DNA of 64,000 nucleotides, from NCBI GenBank assembly GCA_041393415.1, contig JAWKKE010000001.1, positions 520,366-584,365 on the forward strand, read 5' to 3'. Origin of the DNA: Thermoleophilia bacterium. GTDB lineage: Bacteria > Actinomycetota > Thermoleophilia > UBA2241. Within the stretch, counting starts at the first letter, position 1. Each line of letters begins with the position of its first letter. The notes beneath the pieces were generated by a model. That model was not told the origin of the DNA and did no database searches. It saw only the letters and a list, made by a program, of their open reading frames with translations. Position numbers and translations under genes: made by a program. Shown in pieces: positions 31,338 through 46,811 of this stretch.

Positions 31338-31682
31338 CCTTCCGTGAGCCAGGTTTCATTTGCCGTCGGACGGGCAGTACTAAGCTAGTACCAGCAGGTA
31401 CACGGGTCCGTAGCTCACGCTGCGGAGGTTAAGTTGGGTAGTCGGGCCGCTACCCGGACGCAAGTCGATCCGGGCAGCGGCCTTGGTGTATTTCGCGTCA
31501 TTCCGCTCCCGGGGAAGGGAGCGCAGCCTGCAATACATCGACGTTCGCGCCGACACGCCAGCCGCCACCGAAACCCGCAGCGCTCTCGTCGGCAAGCGCA
31601 CACCAAGGCCATCATCCACAGCGGAGACGCGTGCGGTGGCAGCGAGGTTCAGGCTGTGAGCCATGATCGAGGGGAGAACGCA
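31338..31682 (+). promoter_or_regulatory. Long, hairpin-rich 5' leader or candidate structured RNA upstream of DUF2795 gene; class not identified
   Basis: 345-nt non-coding gap containing several perfect inverted repeats: GTACTAagcTAGTAC, GGGTAG-N8-CTACCC, and CGCTCCCggggaaGGGAGCG. Confidence 0.3.
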
Positions 31683-39588: not shown

Positions 39589-39956
39589 GTTCCCCCTCCG
39601 TGATCGTCCCTGACGATATGCGCTGCCAGCCATCAGATCTCTCCACACCTCGGGAGACGCGCATGCCGCCACAACGGTTCGCCCACTTTGTGTCCGACGC
39701 TCGGGACACGGTCTCCGCGTCCCGGTCATGATGGCGCGCGTCTCAACATCTACGAGCAGTCATCCGCACGCCCCGACGCCACTCTGTTCTGCTAGAATCG
39801 CTGCAATTCAAGAGGAGTTGCCGGGATAGAATCACGGTCCGGTAGGTAGTCCGGACGCACCGCCTCTGGCCATGCGGCCCACGAAGGCGCGTGTCAGTAG
39901 CCTCCCCCTTGGGTGTCCGTTCCCGGCGCGAACCCAACTGTGAGGGGAGCGCTGCT

Positions 39957-40388
39957 ATGCCTACTACCGGTCTCAGCGCCAGACTGACCGTCTACTACGA
40001 CGGCCAATTCTGGGTCGGGTTCTTCGAACACGAGGACGACGCGGGATTGGCCATCGCCCGTCACGTGTTTGGACCGGAGCCGTCACTCACCGAGATAGCG
40101 GAGCTCGTGACCAGACGGAGTTGGTCGCGACTCAATTTCGTCATGACCGGGGTGAGCGACGCCCCGGTCCACAGGCTGGCGACAAACCCCAAGCGAAGGC
40201 AGCGCGAGGCCGCCCGCGACGCGCGCGCCACCGCGCCCTCAACCAAGGCGCAAGACGCGCTGAAGGCCGCGCTCGGCGAGCAGAAGCTCGAGCGCGCGGC
40301 CGCGAGGCGCGAACGCCTTGCAGAAGCCGCCGAGGATCGCTGGCAACAGCGCGTGGCCAAACGCAAGGAGAAGAAGCGCGGCCACTAG
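39957..40388 (+). CDS. DUF2992 family protein
   Basis: LTVYYDGQFWVGFFEHEDDAGLAIARHVFGPEPS matches the conserved DUF2992 N-terminus, and a C-terminal K/R/E-rich tail follows. RBS GAGGGGAG. Confidence 0.6.
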   Translation: MPTTGLSARLTVYYDGQFWVGFFEHEDDAGLAIARHVFGPEPSLTEIAELVTRRSWSRLNFVMTGVSDAPVHRLATNPKRRQREAARDARATAPSTKAQDALKAALGEQKLERAAARRERLAEAAEDRWQQRVAKRKEKKRGH

Positions 40389-40889: not shown

Positions 40890-41510
40890 CTAGTAGACAC
40901 CGGGCACCAACCGGCTGGTACGCGTTGAGTACTCCGCATAAGCACCTCCGAAATGCCGCAGGAGCGCTCGTTCCTCGACACGAATACGGTACACGACTGC
41001 GCCCAGAGGCAGCACCACCGCGACCACCCAGCTGATCCAACTGCCCGAGCACAGCCCAAAGCCCAGCATCGACAAGAGCACACCCAGGTAGGCCGGATGC
41101 CGCACGTGGCGGTAGGGACCCCGGTCCACAATACGTTGCTGCGTCGCAACGGTCACCGTAGTCGTGAACTGGCCACGCAGCGTAACCGCGGCCGCCACGC
41201 GAATGGCGACGCCGGATGCAAGGCAGGCACAACCTAACCAGCCCAACACCTGCCTCAGCACCCCCACGTCGCCCAGTCCCGCCGGTGTAGTTCGCGATTG
41301 CCAGGCGATCATCGCGAAGGCCACGCTGACGATAAGCGCCAGCCACATGCCGAGGAAACTCAGGCGATCCTCTACCTTTGCACGTCGGTTGCGTCGACGA
41401 TTCACCAAGCTGAACGCACTGATCGCCACCTCGCTCAGACACCAGACGACGAACAGAGCTACCGTGATGACATTCAGCCAGCTCATCGACGCACGATCAT
41501 GCCGTCTCAC
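40890..41510 (-). CDS. Isoprenylcysteine carboxyl methyltransferase (ICMT/PEMT) family membrane methyltransferase
   Basis: C-terminal RIVDRGPYRHVRHPAYLGVLL...EERALLRHFGGAYAEY is the ICMT-family signature. Confidence 0.75.
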   Translation of the reverse strand: MRRHDRASMSWLNVITVALFVVWCLSEVAISAFSLVNRRRNRRAKVEDRLSFLGMWLALIVSVAFAMIAWQSRTTPAGLGDVGVLRQVLGWLGCACLASGVAIRVAAAVTLRGQFTTTVTVATQQRIVDRGPYRHVRHPAYLGVLLSMLGFGLCSGSWISWVVAVVLPLGAVVYRIRVEERALLRHFGGAYAEYSTRTSRLVPGVY

Positions 41511-41636
41511 GGGCGAGAACGGCGGCGACCACGAAGATAGTCGGCGCCAACTTCACCCTCGACTCCAGGTCCGTTTGAGCAGTCCGTCTGGTCGTCCGGG
41601 CCCACACGAACCGCCGGATCTGCCGGACACGACAAG

Positions 41637-42386
41637 TCATTGCCTCGGCATCAGCGCGAACACGCCCCAGCCCAGGTATTCGCGCGTGTAGGTGGCGTAG
41701 CGCTCGGGCTCCGAGGTCAGTCTTGCTCGAACCTCCTGTGCGAAATCGTCGCCGGGGTTGGCATCGAGCCACCGACGCATCGTGAGCCACTTGGCCGCCT
41801 CGTACCTGTCCCACCCGTCCTGGTCGGCCAGCATCATCTCGACGACATCGTGGCCGAGCCGATCGAAAGATGCCAGAAGTCCTGGCAGCATGAGAAAGTC
41901 GGAGATCGCGCGGGCAAGACACCCCTTGGCGACCTCTTCTGTTGGCGGCAACTGCCGCCAGTAGGGCTCACCAATAAGAATGATCCCCCCTGCCTTGAGG
42001 CTGCGCGCCAGGAGCTCGATCGTGCCGGCGACTCCGCCTGCGATCCAGGTGGCGCCGACACAGGCCGCCACATCGACCTTCTCGCCAGAGACGTACCCAG
42101 CAGCATCGTCATGGATGAACGTGACTCGATCGGCGACGCCGACCTCTTCGGCGCGGAGTCTCGCCTGTTGCGTGAACAACCGGCTCATATCGACACCGGT
42201 ACCGATGATGCCGTGATCGCGTGCCCAGGTACACAGCATCTCTCCCGAACCGCTGCCGAGGTCGAGCACCCGGGCTCCCGGCTCCAAGCGCAACGCCGCA
42301 CCGAGCGCGGCAAGCTTGTCGGGCGTAATCGGGTTGTGGATGCGGTGAGCGCTCTCTGTGATGTTGAAGATCCGCGGAATGTCCAC
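41637..42386 (-). CDS. Class I SAM-dependent methyltransferase
   Basis: Start GTG 42386 preceded by GGGAGG. Motif I RVLDLGSGSGEML. 249 aa. Confidence 0.75.
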   Translation of the reverse strand: MDIPRIFNITESAHRIHNPITPDKLAALGAALRLEPGARVLDLGSGSGEMLCTWARDHGIIGTGVDMSRLFTQQARLRAEEVGVADRVTFIHDDAAGYVSGEKVDVAACVGATWIAGGVAGTIELLARSLKAGGIILIGEPYWRQLPPTEEVAKGCLARAISDFLMLPGLLASFDRLGHDVVEMMLADQDGWDRYEAAKWLTMRRWLDANPGDDFAQEVRARLTSEPERYATYTREYLGWGVFALMPRQ

Positions 42387-42469
42387 TACGAAGTGCCTCC
42401 CTGACTGCGCGTACACAGAATCATCCAAAGCACATTCGCTTACGCTTGAACTGCGCCGAGGACTTCGCT

Positions 42470-43114
42470 TCATACGATAACGCTTGGCGTATCGCTTGGA
42501 GGCGATTCTCCGTCCGCCGGTCGCCACCACGTCGCTACGCCCTGACTCCTGATGACCGCCGTACGCGGTACTTGATACATGAGAATCACGAGCATGATCA
42601 GGTCCGCTGCCGAGCCGAGTGCGTTGAGGACGCTCAAGCCGACCATCCACCACGCTGCCGCGGGAAGCGCCAGCGCTACGACAAAAGGCAACAGCGTGAG
42701 CGCCACGAACGGTGTCACACCACTGATCAGTTGCGCCTGGCGAGAGAGGACGCCGGTATAGGCCATGTAGGGCGTGAGGTAGCGTGGCCAGAACCCCACG
42801 ACGACGTCATCTGACGACCCGGCGATCATCGCCGGAAGCGCGTGCAGAATCTCGTGCAAAGCGATGAACCCGGTCAGCGCTGCGACGGCCACAAGCAACC
42901 CGGCTACCGAGATGGTGACTGAGATCGAGTCGGACGAGGCTCCCGAGGGAATGATGAGACTCCAGACCAAAGCCAAGACACCGGCCATCAGCACTCCGAG
43001 CGGAATCGCGATCAGAAGCAGACCGCTCGGTCGAGGTTCGCGCAGTCTTGTCCAACCATCACCCGCAGGGTCGAAATCCGGGTCGTCGGGTATGGGGCCG
43101 ATGCGGAACCTCAA
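42470..43114 (-). CDS. DUF3267-like putative membrane zincin metallopeptidase
   Basis: HExxH motif (ALHEILHALPA) embedded between TM helices. Architecture fits DUF3267. Confidence 0.6.
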   Translation of the reverse strand: MRFRIGPIPDDPDFDPAGDGWTRLREPRPSGLLLIAIPLGVLMAGVLALVWSLIIPSGASSDSISVTISVAGLLVAVAALTGFIALHEILHALPAMIAGSSDDVVVGFWPRYLTPYMAYTGVLSRQAQLISGVTPFVALTLLPFVVALALPAAAWWMVGLSVLNALGSAADLIMLVILMYQVPRTAVIRSQGVATWWRPADGESPPSDTPSVIV

Positions 43115-43159
43115 GACGTGCCCGTGCCTGCTTGGGCAACGACATGCAGCGTCATCGAT

Positions 43160-43525
43160 TCAACTCTCGTCCAACTCAGCCTGCACCAGCGCTTCCGCCT
43201 TCTGCAACGCGTTGAGCCTGTTTCTCAGCAGACTGTGCTGTGAGGTCCCGGGGGAGAACTTCGCCTGAGCCTCCCTGGTCCGGCATGCCATGGAGGCAAT
43301 CACCCGAAGGGCGTCTTCGAGATCACCCTGCGCACAATGTCGCGCATCGTGTGCTTCTTGGCTCATGAGCGCAGACGCGATGTACAAAGCCTTGAGATTG
43401 TCTCGCAGCCTCGTGTGCTGCCACGTTCCCGGTGCCAACCTCTGCTGCGCTTTCTCCGACTTGCCGATGAGCGAGGCTATCGGTCGAAGCGCTCGCTGCA
43501 GATCATCGGAGGAGTCCTCTTTCAA
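43160..43525 (-). CDS. Hypothetical 121-aa protein made of two tandem roughly 50-aa repeats
   Basis: The repeats are LQRALRPIASLIGKSEKAQQRLAPGTWQHTRLRDNLKALYIASALM and LEDALRVIASMACRTREAQAKFSPGTSQHSLLRNRLNALQKAEALV. GC is about 58%, below the local average. Confidence 0.45.
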   Translation of the reverse strand: MKEDSSDDLQRALRPIASLIGKSEKAQQRLAPGTWQHTRLRDNLKALYIASALMSQEAHDARHCAQGDLEDALRVIASMACRTREAQAKFSPGTSQHSLLRNRLNALQKAEALVQAELDES

Positions 43526-43821
43526 GCAGATCGCCGATCACCTATGCGCTTGTCACGGCATCGAGGTCGACTCCTACCACCTGTCCACCGTCGCCGAGGA
43601 GCCGGGAGACCATGTAGGTCACGTCGCCGACGCCGCAACCGACGTCGAGCACGCGCATCGTGCCTCCGATGCCTGCGTCGAGCAGAAGTCGATCCATGGA
43701 TCGTCACGAGAGTCAGCCAAATTGGACCCTTCGAACGGACGGCCCACCGTCTGAGCGCATCAGCGGACGCCTCTGCGCCCCTTGAGTACTCAAGCACGAC
43801 ACCCACTGCCCGGCACAGGAC

Positions 43822-44025
43822 TTAGGTCTGATCTTCCTTGCTCTGTGACTCACTCTCTTCAATAAGCCTTCTCACACCATCAGGAATCGAACGGCAGCTA
43901 CAGTTCTGAGAGTGCTCGATGTGCCATTGCATGCGCTGCGCATCAGATGCATTTCTTGGCATTCTGTGTGCTTGATGCCATTCCTTATTTGTCTTGCCCA
44001 TCTTCTGATCCTTTCGCCTGGGCAA
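43822..44025 (-). CDS. Small Cys/His-rich hypothetical protein (possible metal-binding), in low-GC islet
   Basis: MGKTNKEWHQAHRMPRNASDAQRMQWHIEHSQNCSCRSIPDGVRRLIEE shows a WH..H.MP.N.....R..WH.EH...C.C pattern. Coding-region GC is about 47-50%, against about 68% overall. Start is either 44025 or the internal ATG about 44001. Confidence 0.45.
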   Translation of the reverse strand: MPRRKDQKMGKTNKEWHQAHRMPRNASDAQRMQWHIEHSQNCSCRSIPDGVRRLIEESESQSKEDQT

Positions 44026-44064
44026 TTGGACAATCCGCCAGGTGTGGTACCTGAGCGTTCGCAG

Positions 44065-44489
44065 CTAATCGGTCGCCAGCATCCCGCCCTCAAGCAGGAG
44101 GGAAGGGACGTAGGCAATCTCCCACGGATGCCCGTCGGGATCACCGAAGTACCCCGTGTAGCCCCACGGCTTGTCGGCCGCAGGCGACAGCAGTAGCGCG
44201 CCGGCCGAGACGGCCCGTGCGAGCACGACATCGACCTGACGAGGCCCACTCCGCCGGAGAGGGTGAACAAGACGAAGTCTCCGCCACTTACCGAGGAGAA
44301 CGTCCATCCCAGACCATCGCGATAGAATGCCAGCGCTGCGCCCATATCGCGCACCCCAAGTGTGATGATGGTCAACCGCTGCTCCACAGGCTTCGTCCTT
44401 CCGTCCATCCAGCTCCGCGATACTACGCGCCGAAGGGCTTCCGCGACCGCCGGCCGGTGTACCGGCTCGGATGTGCCCATTATGCCCAA
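44065..44489 (-). pseudogene. VOC/glyoxalase family gene with apparent frameshift near 44215-44235
   Basis: N-terminal half (EQRLTIITLGVRDMGAALAFYRDGLGWTF...FVLFTLSGGVGL) is in one frame. The C-terminal half (RQVDVVLARAVSAGALLLSPAADKPWGYTGYFGDPDGHPWEIAYVPS) is in another. Both halves are typical VOC modules. Confidence 0.55.
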
Positions 44490-44534
44490 GCGCCCGAAGG
44501 GAAGCCCAGATCGGCAATCACGATGGCGCGCTCG

Positions 44535-45470
44535 TCAGCGATTCCGCGCCAAGACCAGAAGCCGATCTGCCATCGCCTCGATCTCCGTCGCTATCCAGAC
44601 CCTCGCGCACCACTCCGGCGGGATGCCCTCACGCCCGTAGAATGCGCCCGCGATCTGACCAGTAACGGCAGCGGTCGTGTCTGCATCATCCCCTAGATTG
44701 GCAGCCGCGAGGATCGCCCCCGCGAACGAATCCGTGTGGGCGAAGCACCAGAGCGCGGCTTCCAGGCAGGCGACGCAGTACCCCGTACCACGGATGTGCT
44801 CGCGCGACTTCCCGAGATACTCGCCGCGCGCAATCGCCGCCACCTTCGCCCCTGAGCAGGGCACATCACCGAGATCCAGGACCTCATCGATTCCAGCACC
44901 CGAAAGCGCACGCGAAGTCGCGACGCCGAGAAGCTGACAGCACTCGAGAGCCTCAGGAGCCGCATGCGTGGTGCGAGAGCTCTCGGAGCTCAACATGAGC
45001 ACCCTTTGCGAATCCGGATGCGCATACAGGACCGCCGGAGCAAGCCTCATCAACGAGCCGTTGCCCGCCGTCCAGGGATCGGTCGAACCGGCGAAAGGGT
45101 CTCCGTCTGCAAGAAATCGAGACAGAGCGACGGCGACGGTGCCACCGATGTCGAAACACTCACCTGTGGAGCTCATGTGCCCCCGCTGCCACCAGTTCAC
45201 GTAGCGACTCATCTGGTCGGCCGCATCGAATCCGCCGCACGCAATCAGGCTTTCTGCCAGACATAGCGCCATCGATGTGTCATCGGTCCATTGTCCTGCC
45301 TCAAGACGGAATGGGCCGCCGCCCACCATGTCCTCAACGGGGAGGAACGTACCGCGGGGGCGAAACTCAACAGTGGTGCCGACGGCATCTCCGCACGCCA
45401 GGCCGACGAGAGATCCGCGATAGCGGTCGATGAGATCCAAGACAGAAGACCTACCCTCCGGTGCCACCAA
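44535..45470 (-). CDS. ADP-ribosylglycohydrolase family protein (DraG/ARH-like)
   Basis: 311 aa: RYRGSLVGLACGDAVGTTVEF...GQWTDDTSMALCL...GNGSLMRLAPAVL...LGDDADTTAAVTGQIAGAFYG are the characteristic ARH metal-binding Asp/Thr motifs. Confidence 0.85.
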   Translation of the reverse strand: MVAPEGRSSVLDLIDRYRGSLVGLACGDAVGTTVEFRPRGTFLPVEDMVGGGPFRLEAGQWTDDTSMALCLAESLIACGGFDAADQMSRYVNWWQRGHMSSTGECFDIGGTVAVALSRFLADGDPFAGSTDPWTAGNGSLMRLAPAVLYAHPDSQRVLMLSSESSRTTHAAPEALECCQLLGVATSRALSGAGIDEVLDLGDVPCSGAKVAAIARGEYLGKSREHIRGTGYCVACLEAALWCFAHTDSFAGAILAAANLGDDADTTAAVTGQIAGAFYGREGIPPEWCARVWIATEIEAMADRLLVLARNR

Positions 45471-45779
45471 CGTAGTTGCCCATAAGCCGCACTCCCACGA
45501 CCTCGATCATGCGCTCTACATGATACGGCGCTCGCGCTGCAGGCCAGACGTGTTTGTTGGGTGGAGACGGCCAACGCATCACACATGCGCCGTGAGTGCA
45601 ATAATCGAGGCACCAACCGCGGCGCTGCGACGAGTCGGCTCCGTGCGCTGAATCCCAATCCACTCAAGCCGCGTCAGCTACCCACGGAAAGCGTGACGTG
45701 AGGGCTCCGGCCGGGGATACATCGATGAAGAGGCGGGGGTAGCGCAGAGCACCTTGTGGACGGAGGAGTCGCAGATCCT

Positions 45780-46282
45780 ATGGAGATCGGACCGGACCCA
45801 GACTGGATACCCTGCACCTATGAGAGCTGCGACCGCGTCAGCGGTCCGTTCTATCACGGTACCGCGGCCGCGCTGGCGCCCGGGACCATGATTGGCCCGG
45901 GCTTCGAGTCCAACTACCAAAAGGGGCGAATCTCCAACAACATCTACTTCACGGCACTGCCCGCGCCGGCAGCGGGACTGGCAGCGGAGCTTGCGGTGGC
46001 ACTGACCGGAGCCCAGCCACCAGGGCACATCTACCTGGTGGAACCGACGGGGCCTTTGAGGACGATCCGAACGTCACCAACAAGCGCTTCCCGGGGAACC
46101 CCACTAAGTCGTACCGCAGCATCCATCCACTCCGAATCATCTCTGAAGTCAAGGACTGGGAACCGAGCGATCCCGAACTGGTGAAGGTGATGCTGGAGCG
46201 CCTGGAGAAGCTCCGCGAGCACGGCGAGGACCTGATCGAGGACTGGCGGCCGAGCGCGACGCCCGATTCCATCTTCTCGTGA
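45780..46282 (+). pseudogene. arr: Arr-family NAD+-dependent (rifampin-type) ADP-ribosyltransferase, interrupted by a 1-nt deletion in a GGGGCC run at about 46053
   Basis: ATG 45780 with a GGAGGAG RBS. The N-terminal part reads MEIGPDPDWIPCTYESCDRVSGPFYHGTAAALAPGTMIGPGFESNYQKGRISNNIYFTALPAPAAGLAAELAVALTG...HIYLVEPTGP. After shifting +1 it continues FEDDPNVTNKRFPGNPTKSYRSIHPLRIISEVKDWEPSDPELVKVMLERLEKLREHGEDLIEDW, ending at TGA 46280-46282. Both parts follow the Arr consensus (DWIP, GPFYHGT, IYFTAL, AELA, IYxVEPTGPFEDDPNxTNKRFPGNPT). Confidence 0.8.
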
Positions 46283-46346
46283 GATCCTGCTGTCGTCTGT
46301 CTACTTGCCTGTTGGTCGAGCTTGTGCCGCTCTGCTCGCTTCGTCT

Positions 46347-46811
46347 TCAGGCCCTTCCCACAACCACGAGCCTCCGCCCACCGTCGGGCGACGGTCTCCA
46401 CTCGCACCTCACCACGTCGCCGATAGCCACCGGCCATCGCTCACCGGCCGGGATCTGCGCGCCCGTACCCTCGACTTCAGGATACGGTCCATCGACCCGA
46501 CAAGATCCATCTTCGAGGTCCCTGACGCAGACTGCCCGCCAGACCTCTCCCTCGACACCTAGAAGCCGCAGATACGCGGTCTCCACGGTGACGTAGCCGT
46601 CGCCCCAATGATCGCGGTCTACCTCGTAGGGATCCACGAAGAAGCCCTGGGGCTGACTCCGAAAACCGGCCTGCGTCGACAGCCTAGCCACTGCAGCATC
46701 CGCGTGCGCACGGGATGAGTAGACACCAATGAACTTCACATCCTCCGACTCGTCGTCCTGGACGTGAACGTGCTGGACTATCCAGACTGTCAACCGCATT
46801 GGCCAATCCAC
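46347..46811 (-). CDS. Hypothetical protein, no recognised family
   Basis: 154-aa ORF (MDWPMRLTVWIVQHVHVQDDESEDVKFIGVYSSRAHADAAVARL...). Composition is protein-like. Lies between arr and the DUF4386 gene. Confidence 0.45.
   Translation of the reverse strand: MDWPMRLTVWIVQHVHVQDDESEDVKFIGVYSSRAHADAAVARLSTQAGFRSQPQGFFVDPYEVDRDHWGDGYVTVETAYLRLLGVEGEVWRAVCVRDLEDGSCRVDGPYPEVEGTGAQIPAGERWPVAIGDVVRCEWRPSPDGGRRLVVVGRA

Follow-up and report, generated by a model that had tools for sequence, protein, structure and literature searches.

We analysed a stretch of 64,000 nucleotides of a Thermoleophilia bacterium (the window; contig JAWKKE010000001.1, positions 520,366 to 584,365), and within it the positions 43.16-44.06 kb, where the GC content dips. 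Our analyses show that this span holds two intact, unrelated, stand-alone genes, which we call zn59 and rep121, together with the remnants of two other genes. It is therefore probably best described as a patchwork and not as one unit, made up of a foreign zn59, a rep121 that has nothing to do with it, and two gene remnants, with no toxin, antitoxin or phage gene. The original prediction had seen in the same span a low-GC islet encoding a tandem-repeat protein and a small Cys/His-rich protein, and had proposed a horizontally acquired remnant that could be a toxin-antitoxin or a phage-derived module.

Base composition and the zn59 gene

The window has a mean GC content of 65.1%, with a standard deviation (sd) of 3.7% over 200-nt intervals. 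The lowest 200-nt interval of all 64 kb, at 49% GC, is found at positions 43826-44025, and the lowest 900-nt stretch, at 58.4%, at 43151-44050; the span 43160-44060 as a whole has 58.6%. A drop from about 68% to about 47-58% across 43.16-44.06 kb had been predicted. The dip is real, but it is not uniform, and the sequence on either side of it has 62-65% GC rather than 68%. Inside 43160-44060, the GC content is 47.8% in the small open reading frame (ORF) zn59, 59.8% in the rep121 gene, and 64.2% in the 296-nt spacer that separates them (43526-43821). At a resolution of 40 nt, the low-GC tract corresponds to the zn59 coding sequence and its ribosome-binding region.

A profile of GC content and codon usage, which had been put forward as a check of the prediction, located the anomaly and found it strong only in zn59. 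This gene (43822-44001, minus strand) has 50, 43 and 50% GC at the first, second and third codon positions, respectively. Its third-position value (GC3) is about 4.5 sd below the 75% expected for 60 codons, and zn59 alone is aberrant by codon position, as GC3 is 68-84% in 19 other genes of the window. The GC3 of rep121 is 71%, which is near that of its neighbours encoding an ADP-ribosylglycohydrolase (ARH, 70%), a rifampin ADP-ribosyltransferase (Arr, 68.5%) and a DUF3267 protein (72%), with DUF7336 and ICMT alike; core genes of the window, for example rho and tetR, have 81-84%. Since the rep121 gene is not compositionally foreign, the low-GC "islet" is essentially one 180-bp gene, zn59. The GC3 of 50% in zn59 as opposed to 71% in rep121 indicates that the two genes have separate histories, and the likeness of rep121 to its neighbours is consistent with a longer residence of the gene or with its origin in a donor whose GC content was similar.

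The Cys/His-rich protein had been read as 67 amino acids long. The corresponding ORF (43822-44025, minus strand) and its motif are present, but we prefer a 59-aa reading from the ATG at 44001, because homologues begin at the aligned methionine, an AAGGA box lies 7 nt upstream, and the gene call in a conspecific contig (L001, see below) is also 59 aa; the spacing of the motif was likewise amended, with three residues and not two before the first cysteine. The leader of zn59, from the stop codon of the upstream VOC pseudogene to the start codon (44002-44064, minus strand), includes this AAGGA ribosome-binding site as well as the alternative TTG start at 44025.

Probable horizontal acquisition of zn59

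Genomes were scanned for zn59 with one genome per species, which gave at least 472 loci, and the best 80 were analysed as genomic loci. Proteins identical or at least 90% identical to those of the window were found on three other assemblies, L001 (ENA), L175 (Logan) and L176 (GCA_036751705.1), which are 99.5-99.8% identical to the window and conspecific with it. The GC content of the gene was compared with that of its host for 84 matches to genes of the family in the retrieved loci, that is, the 80 genome loci and the conspecific contig L001, with the window copy lying outside this set. In these 84 matches, the zn59-family gene has between 30 and 70% GC and goes along with the surrounding DNA, from which it differs by -0.9% on average (sd 3.5). 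The minimum of the set is L001, at -14.2% relative to its host, and the window copy has 48% GC in a window of 65% GC.

The closest zn59 proteins are those of Flavipsychrobacter (Bacteroidota), with 70% and 66% identity, and their genes have 46-51% GC. As far as record titles name taxa, Actinomycetota are named in none of the best 80 of the at least 472 genomic matches. The best match at the DNA level is only 75% identical over 105 nt, and thus no donor can be named. The composition of the gene and its discordant relatives support a horizontal acquisition of zn59, which was probably recent and from a donor of lower GC content, so that the gene would not yet have ameliorated. The proposal of a horizontally acquired remnant consequently stands for zn59, with its GC3 of 50%, a family that tracks host GC and L001 as the minimum; it does not stand for rep121, whose GC3 of 71% is like that of its neighbours.

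Single genes that have been imported into variable regions without yet ameliorating share several features with zn59, including atypical GC and GC3, discordant relatives, pseudogenised neighbours and heterogeneous contexts of the homologues. If it was acquired in this way, zn59 would be a clean case of scar-free single-gene import, with a 180-bp coding sequence of 50% GC3 placed in a genome of about 80% GC3 amid visible gene turnover.

The zn59 protein family

The zn59 protein carries the motif W-H-x2-H-x-M-P-x-N ... W-H-x-E-H-x3-C-x-C. An exhaustive phmmer search placed its family in 552 representative clusters at 50% identity, and a profile search retrieved 1690 proteins, all of them labelled "hypothetical". 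The best 80 loci come from Bacteroidota, Alpha-, Beta- and Gammaproteobacteria, Spirochaetota, Acidobacteriota, Ignavibacteria, Chloroflexota, several lineages of the candidate phyla radiation (CPR) and two archaea, and three loci from Devosiaceae carry a tandem zn59 paralogue. Occasional fusions join members of the family to DUF1905 plus OmdA, YjbR, DUF1801, GFA, HEAT or SWIM domains, and these give no clear functional direction.

In alignments of 60 and 119 family sequences, H9, H30, C34 and C36 are invariant, making exactly two histidines and two cysteines, and N5, W8, M14, P15, W26 and R37 are invariant or nearly so. The AlphaFold2 (AF2) model of zn59 has a predicted local distance difference test (pLDDT) score of 85 and consists of helices 6-11, 20-33 and 41-57. 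The invariant residues suggest that H9, H30, C34 and C36 form a His2Cys2 site for one structural zinc on a three-helix fold of 59 residues. A conserved surface made up of N5, W8, M14-P15, N17, R23, W26-H27 and R37 could bind a partner macromolecule, in which case zn59 would be no enzyme but a mini-protein that serves in binding or as an adaptor.

No match to zn59 was found in Pfam, NCBIfam, PADLOC or the PDB, and PHROG returned only a spanin at E=0.043; 119 members of the family gave no consistent match to Pfam either. Sequence searches of the PDB yielded chance-level matches only, to eL21 (E=0.18) and to a designed protein (E=0.012), and a literature search on the motifs and accessions found nothing. 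An HNH-like reading of the H...N...H residues was rejected given the all-helical model and the lack of a Pfam or fold match. The HHCC N-terminal domain of retroviral integrases is about 50 aa long and has three helices with two His and two Cys in the pattern H-x3-H...C-x2-C. It resembles zn59 in its three helices and its two His and two Cys, but the order and the spacing of the ligands are different in zn59 (H...H-x3-C-x-C), the integrase domain is not among the PDB fold matches of zn59, and the zn59 gene is not associated with a transposase or an integrase.

Clustering of the neighbourhoods of the 80 zn59 loci revealed no partner in more than 10% of them. The only uncommon neighbour that recurs is a protein of 126-165 aa, which adjoins zn59 or lies nearby in eight of these loci and whose similarity to baeRF family 5 is weak and below threshold (E=0.012). 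It lies directly upstream of zn59 on the same strand in six (L028, L036, L069, L033, L029 and L042) and nearby in the other two (L086 and L018), and the loci span Bacteroidota (including Chitinophagaceae), Devosia and others, while the neighbour is absent from the window. Release-factor-like domains of the baeRF type have been tied to ribosome stalling and rescue and to hibernation (Burroughs and Aravind, PMC6514570). It is conceivable, as something of a long shot, that the zn59 family comprises undescribed and very widespread His2Cys2 zinc mini-proteins that act as a new translation-stress or ribosome-associated factor and spread by lateral transfer. If true, the fold of zn59 would have no counterpart among solved structures.

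The duplicated protein rep121

The internally duplicated 121-aa protein of the prediction was confirmed. Its ORF (43160-43525, minus strand) opens with a TTG that aligns with the methionine of homologues, and its halves are 48% identical over 50 residues in a self-alignment (E=2e-14). Repeat 1 (residues 8-57; 43355-43504, minus strand) has the loop A-P-G-T-W-Q-H, of which P32, G33, T34, W35, Q36 and H37 are invariant or nearly so, and repeat 2 (residues 68-117; 43175-43324, minus strand) has the loop S-P-G-T-S-Q-H, with G93, T94, S95, Q96 and H97 nearly invariant. We found at least 325 homologues, some 121 aa in length, that share 60-69% identity with the window copy and about 77% with one another. 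The window copy, though intact, belongs to the more divergent members. Further homologues, at 29-34% identity and annotated "hypothetical protein", occur on Clostridium chromids and plasmids.

The AF2 model of rep121 (pLDDT 91; predicted template modelling score, pTM, 0.85) consists of two tandem helical hairpins, with helices at 2-28, 35-54, 66-87 and 95-120. The hairpins may pack as a pseudo-dimeric four-helix bundle, and the two PGT(W/S)QH loops might lie at the same pole and form one composite binding site. Searches for rep121 gave no match in Pfam, NCBIfam, PHROG or PADLOC and nothing above noise in the PDB, and fold searches returned only generic single-hairpin matches. The comparison with WXG100-type hairpin dimers, DHp-like hairpins and four-helix bundles remained at this generic level, without a Pfam match, WXG100 included; moreover, the PGT(W/S)QH loop of rep121 is not W-x-G, and its two hairpins are fused in one chain.

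The original prediction had been unable to name a family for either small protein, and this judgement was borne out, as neither zn59 nor rep121 has a credible match in Pfam, NCBIfam, PHROG, PADLOC or the PDB. The profile searches and structure predictions that it had proposed placed neither protein in a housekeeping family and gave confident helical AF2 models for both. Both families are thus "dark", without Pfam, NCBIfam or PDB coverage, and that of zn59, being large, distributed over many phyla and equipped with four evident candidate metal ligands, would be cheap to characterise and is worth a family definition.

The homologues of rep121 are found in eight independent contexts that are wholly different from one another, among them runs of small same-strand genes, a defence-type island, nonribosomal peptide synthetase (NRPS) genes, a UBact-proteasome operon and sugar-metabolism genes. 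In the UBact-proteasome operon, the homologue has a Pup-ligase-like gene on one side and the UBact gene on the other (L171, 6001-6453; L172, 3423-3875). In L003 (1-10119) and L006 (1-6400), homologues are part of cassette-array-like runs of unrelated genes, for a methyltransferase, lactamase_B, Abi_C, GNAT, PNPOx, GGACT and others. An integron-cassette reading of these arrays was considered and set aside, with no search made for attC; the intergenic gaps in the window, at 16-60 nt, are too short for attC.

Weighing the patchwork reading against its alternatives

Several points weigh against the patchwork reading, beginning with the case for import. The insertion of zn59 is deduced from composition and discordant best matches and not from an empty site in a relative. 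Unlike comparable imports, the locus has no mobility gene, tRNA, or flanking direct or inverted repeat to mark an insertion, and the only repeats are short and at chance level. The conspecific assemblies all carry the same layout, zn59 included. The same genes do therefore occur at the same locus in relatives, which the original prediction had regarded as evidence against a foreign origin, but only in conspecific assemblies that are 99.5-99.8% identical and cannot date the insertion. Among more distant sequences, the ARH relatives in metagenomes (up to 66% identity) have no neighbours in common with the window. As for function, we infer the zinc and partner binding of zn59 and the role of the rep121 loops as a binding site, and a fold search against solved structures found nothing that informatively resembles either model. 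Finally, gene callers skipped both zn59 and rep121 in most assemblies (the source metagenome-assembled genome, MAG, as well as L175 and L176), and a scan for promoter and terminator consensus sequences found nothing.

The missing gene calls would also fit the explanation that survives best among the alternatives, although we consider it unlikely, namely that zn59, rep121 or both are non-functional here, as decaying copies or unexpressed genes. The surrounding genes are decaying, the C-terminal tail of zn59 is acidic where that of most homologues is basic, and rep121 has a TTG start and a distant AGGTGA box and differs from the consensus at six sites with a conservation of at least 90%. However, both ORFs are full length and have kept every invariant residue of their families, and other members of the rep121 family, P0003 and P0083 among them, have diverged at least as far as the window copy. 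Polymorphisms between strains are few, and they are conservative or directed towards the family consensus, as is S38P in zn59; in rep121, one affects the second position of codon 98 and another falls on a third position.

Another explanation, which we hold to be rather unlikely, is that zn59 is an old resident gene whose low GC content stems from its amino-acid composition or from a constraint imposed by its function, for instance through regulation or mRNA structure. K, N, E, Q, S and H are indeed abundant in the protein, the low-GC tract matches the coding sequence almost exactly and has no insertion scars, and all conspecific strains carry the gene. The synonymous third positions speak against such a constraint, with 50% GC in zn59 and 68-84% elsewhere, as do homologues in high-GC hosts, for example Devosia and Pleomorphomonas, in which the same conserved residues are encoded at 60-70% GC. 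A further point against it is the absence of named Actinomycetota from the best 80 of the at least 472 genomic homologues.

We also weighed a role for zn59 as a minimal regulator, either zinc-binding anti-sigma (ZAS-like) or redox-sensing, which appears very improbable. The ZAS pattern is H/C...H-x3-C-x2-C, and ZAS domains (zf-HC2, ChrR/RsrA type) are, like zn59, small and helical, with a distal His about 20 residues away from an H-x3-C...C cluster at a helix end or turn. The ligands of zn59, H...(20)...H-x3-C-x-C, placed on the first two helices and the turn after them, resemble this arrangement, and we take the likeness as a lead only. In contrast to ZAS domains, zn59 stands alone as a protein of about 60 aa, has C-x-C and not C-x2-C, and shows no profile or fold match. 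None of 119 family members matches Pfam zf-HC2 at E<=1, and just one of the 80 zn59 loci has a gene for a sigma factor of the extracytoplasmic function (ECF) type within 2.5 kb. With motif spacing, profile, fold and sigma-factor neighbourhood all failing, membership of zn59 in the ZAS family is untenable, and the identification was rejected.

A two-gene module for addiction or defence, of the toxin-antitoxin kind that the original prediction had envisaged or similar to it, would account for two small same-strand genes of unknown function among decaying neighbours, and some rep121 homologues do occur near genes of a defence type, such as NACHT, Eco57I, Abi_C and AAA_21. In our view this reading can be discounted almost entirely. 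A gap of 296 nt, which contains a dead methyltransferase stump, separates the two genes, and their families were never found together in 88 other loci: the 80 zn59 loci have no rep121 homologue within 5 kb of the gene, and the eight independent rep121 contexts have no zn59 homologue nearby. Each family occurs alone in many phyla, and neither protein matches PADLOC, Pfam or NCBIfam, or any known toxin or antitoxin family. Within the patchwork that we favour, zn59 and rep121 would act independently of each other.

Equally little credit is left for a phage-derived module or prophage remnant, to which the low GC content of zn59 and the nearby gene fragments might have pointed, since neither family occurs in IMG/VR or in 50,697 phage records (INPHARED), the spanin noted above is the only PHROG match and not a credible one, and the window has no tRNA, no meaningful flanking repeats and no integrase or phage gene among neighbours that are metabolic or accessory.

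Gene remnants and neighbouring genes

The original prediction had spoken of decaying flanking genes, and the decay proved somewhat more extensive than it had described: in addition to a frameshift and deletion in the VOC gene, we identified a frameshift in Arr and a methyltransferase remnant that had escaped notice. This remnant of a class I S-adenosylmethionine (SAM)-dependent methyltransferase (43542-43697, minus strand; GC 64.7%) has 51 codons and retains motif I only. Pfam Methyltransf_31, Methyltransf_25 and PCMT match residues 10-47 (profile positions 1-37), and the stump is bounded by stop codons, one directly upstream and one at 43542, with the remainder of the gene missing.

The VOC/glyoxalase-family pseudogene (44065-44410, minus strand) had been predicted as frameshifted, and so it is. 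One frame carries its N-terminal part, with matches to Ble-like_N and Glyoxalase, and another its C-terminal part, with matches to Glyoxalase_6 and Glyoxalase; the halves join near 44240. About 20 profile positions are missing, and three-frame translation gives no continuous paired beta-alpha-beta-beta-beta module in a single frame. The defect is common to four independent assemblies; since L001, L175 and L176 show the same layout without an indel across 42200-45600, it is real and not an assembly error. The methyltransferase stump and this frameshifted, internally deleted gene may be regarded as debris of gene turnover.

Of the two other flanking genes that had been named, ARH (44535-45470, minus strand) is present and intact, with a Pfam ADP_ribosyl_GH match at E=1e-74 and an NCBIfam Tri1 score of 341 bits, below the cut-off of 490. 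Arr (45779-46246, plus strand) is also present, and it is frameshifted in the window, where one C is lost at 46055 (CCC to CC) relative to the three conspecific assemblies; the window copy scores only 58.7 bits for rifampin_ARR. All three of those assemblies have an intact ORF of 155 aa, with 157 bits for NCBIfam rifampin_ARR against a cut-off of 130. The missing C points either to a pseudogene specific to this strain or to an assembly error in a homopolymer. ARH (Tri1-like) and Arr are divergently oriented with DUF7336 adjoining, and this pairing is not kept among the ARH relatives at up to 66% identity.

The span 43.16-44.06 kb is situated in a run of about 6 kb of small, mostly same-strand accessory genes, which includes ICMT, a methyltransferase, DUF3267, ARH, Arr and DUF7336. 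From ICMT to DUF7336 (40890-46811), GC3 is 68-77%, as opposed to 79-84% in the flanking rho, tetR, DUF2992 and small membrane protein genes, which hints at a variable segment extending over all of these roughly 6 kb. The findings on zn59 and rep121 change no major open question, and the region is an ordinary variable one.

Public annotation and RNA elements

The named cluster mates of the window's proteins belong to the source MAG, a Thermoleophilia bacterium, and their accessions follow the gene order of the window from MEZ5125115 to MEZ5125123. The sole protein recorded between DUF3267 (MEZ5125117.1) and ARH (MEZ5125119.1) is the 51-aa methyltransferase stump (MEZ5125118.1), and there is no protein accession between ARH and DUF7336. 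Among about 15 billion recorded proteins, the rep121 and the 59- and 67-aa sequences of the window are absent, and only the L001 variant of the 59-aa protein is recorded. This amounts to an annotation blind spot, in which a dead stump is annotated and two intact genes with hundreds to thousands of homologues are not.

A scan with Rfam gave no match within 43.16-44.06 kb. Elsewhere in the window, it identified a yjdF/azaaromatic riboswitch at 39816-39936 (plus strand; 63 bits against a gathering score of 45) directly before the DUF2992 gene (39891-40388), overlapping the longest-ORF start of that gene, and an nhaA-I RNA motif at 31404-31455 (plus strand; 48 bits against a gathering score of 37).

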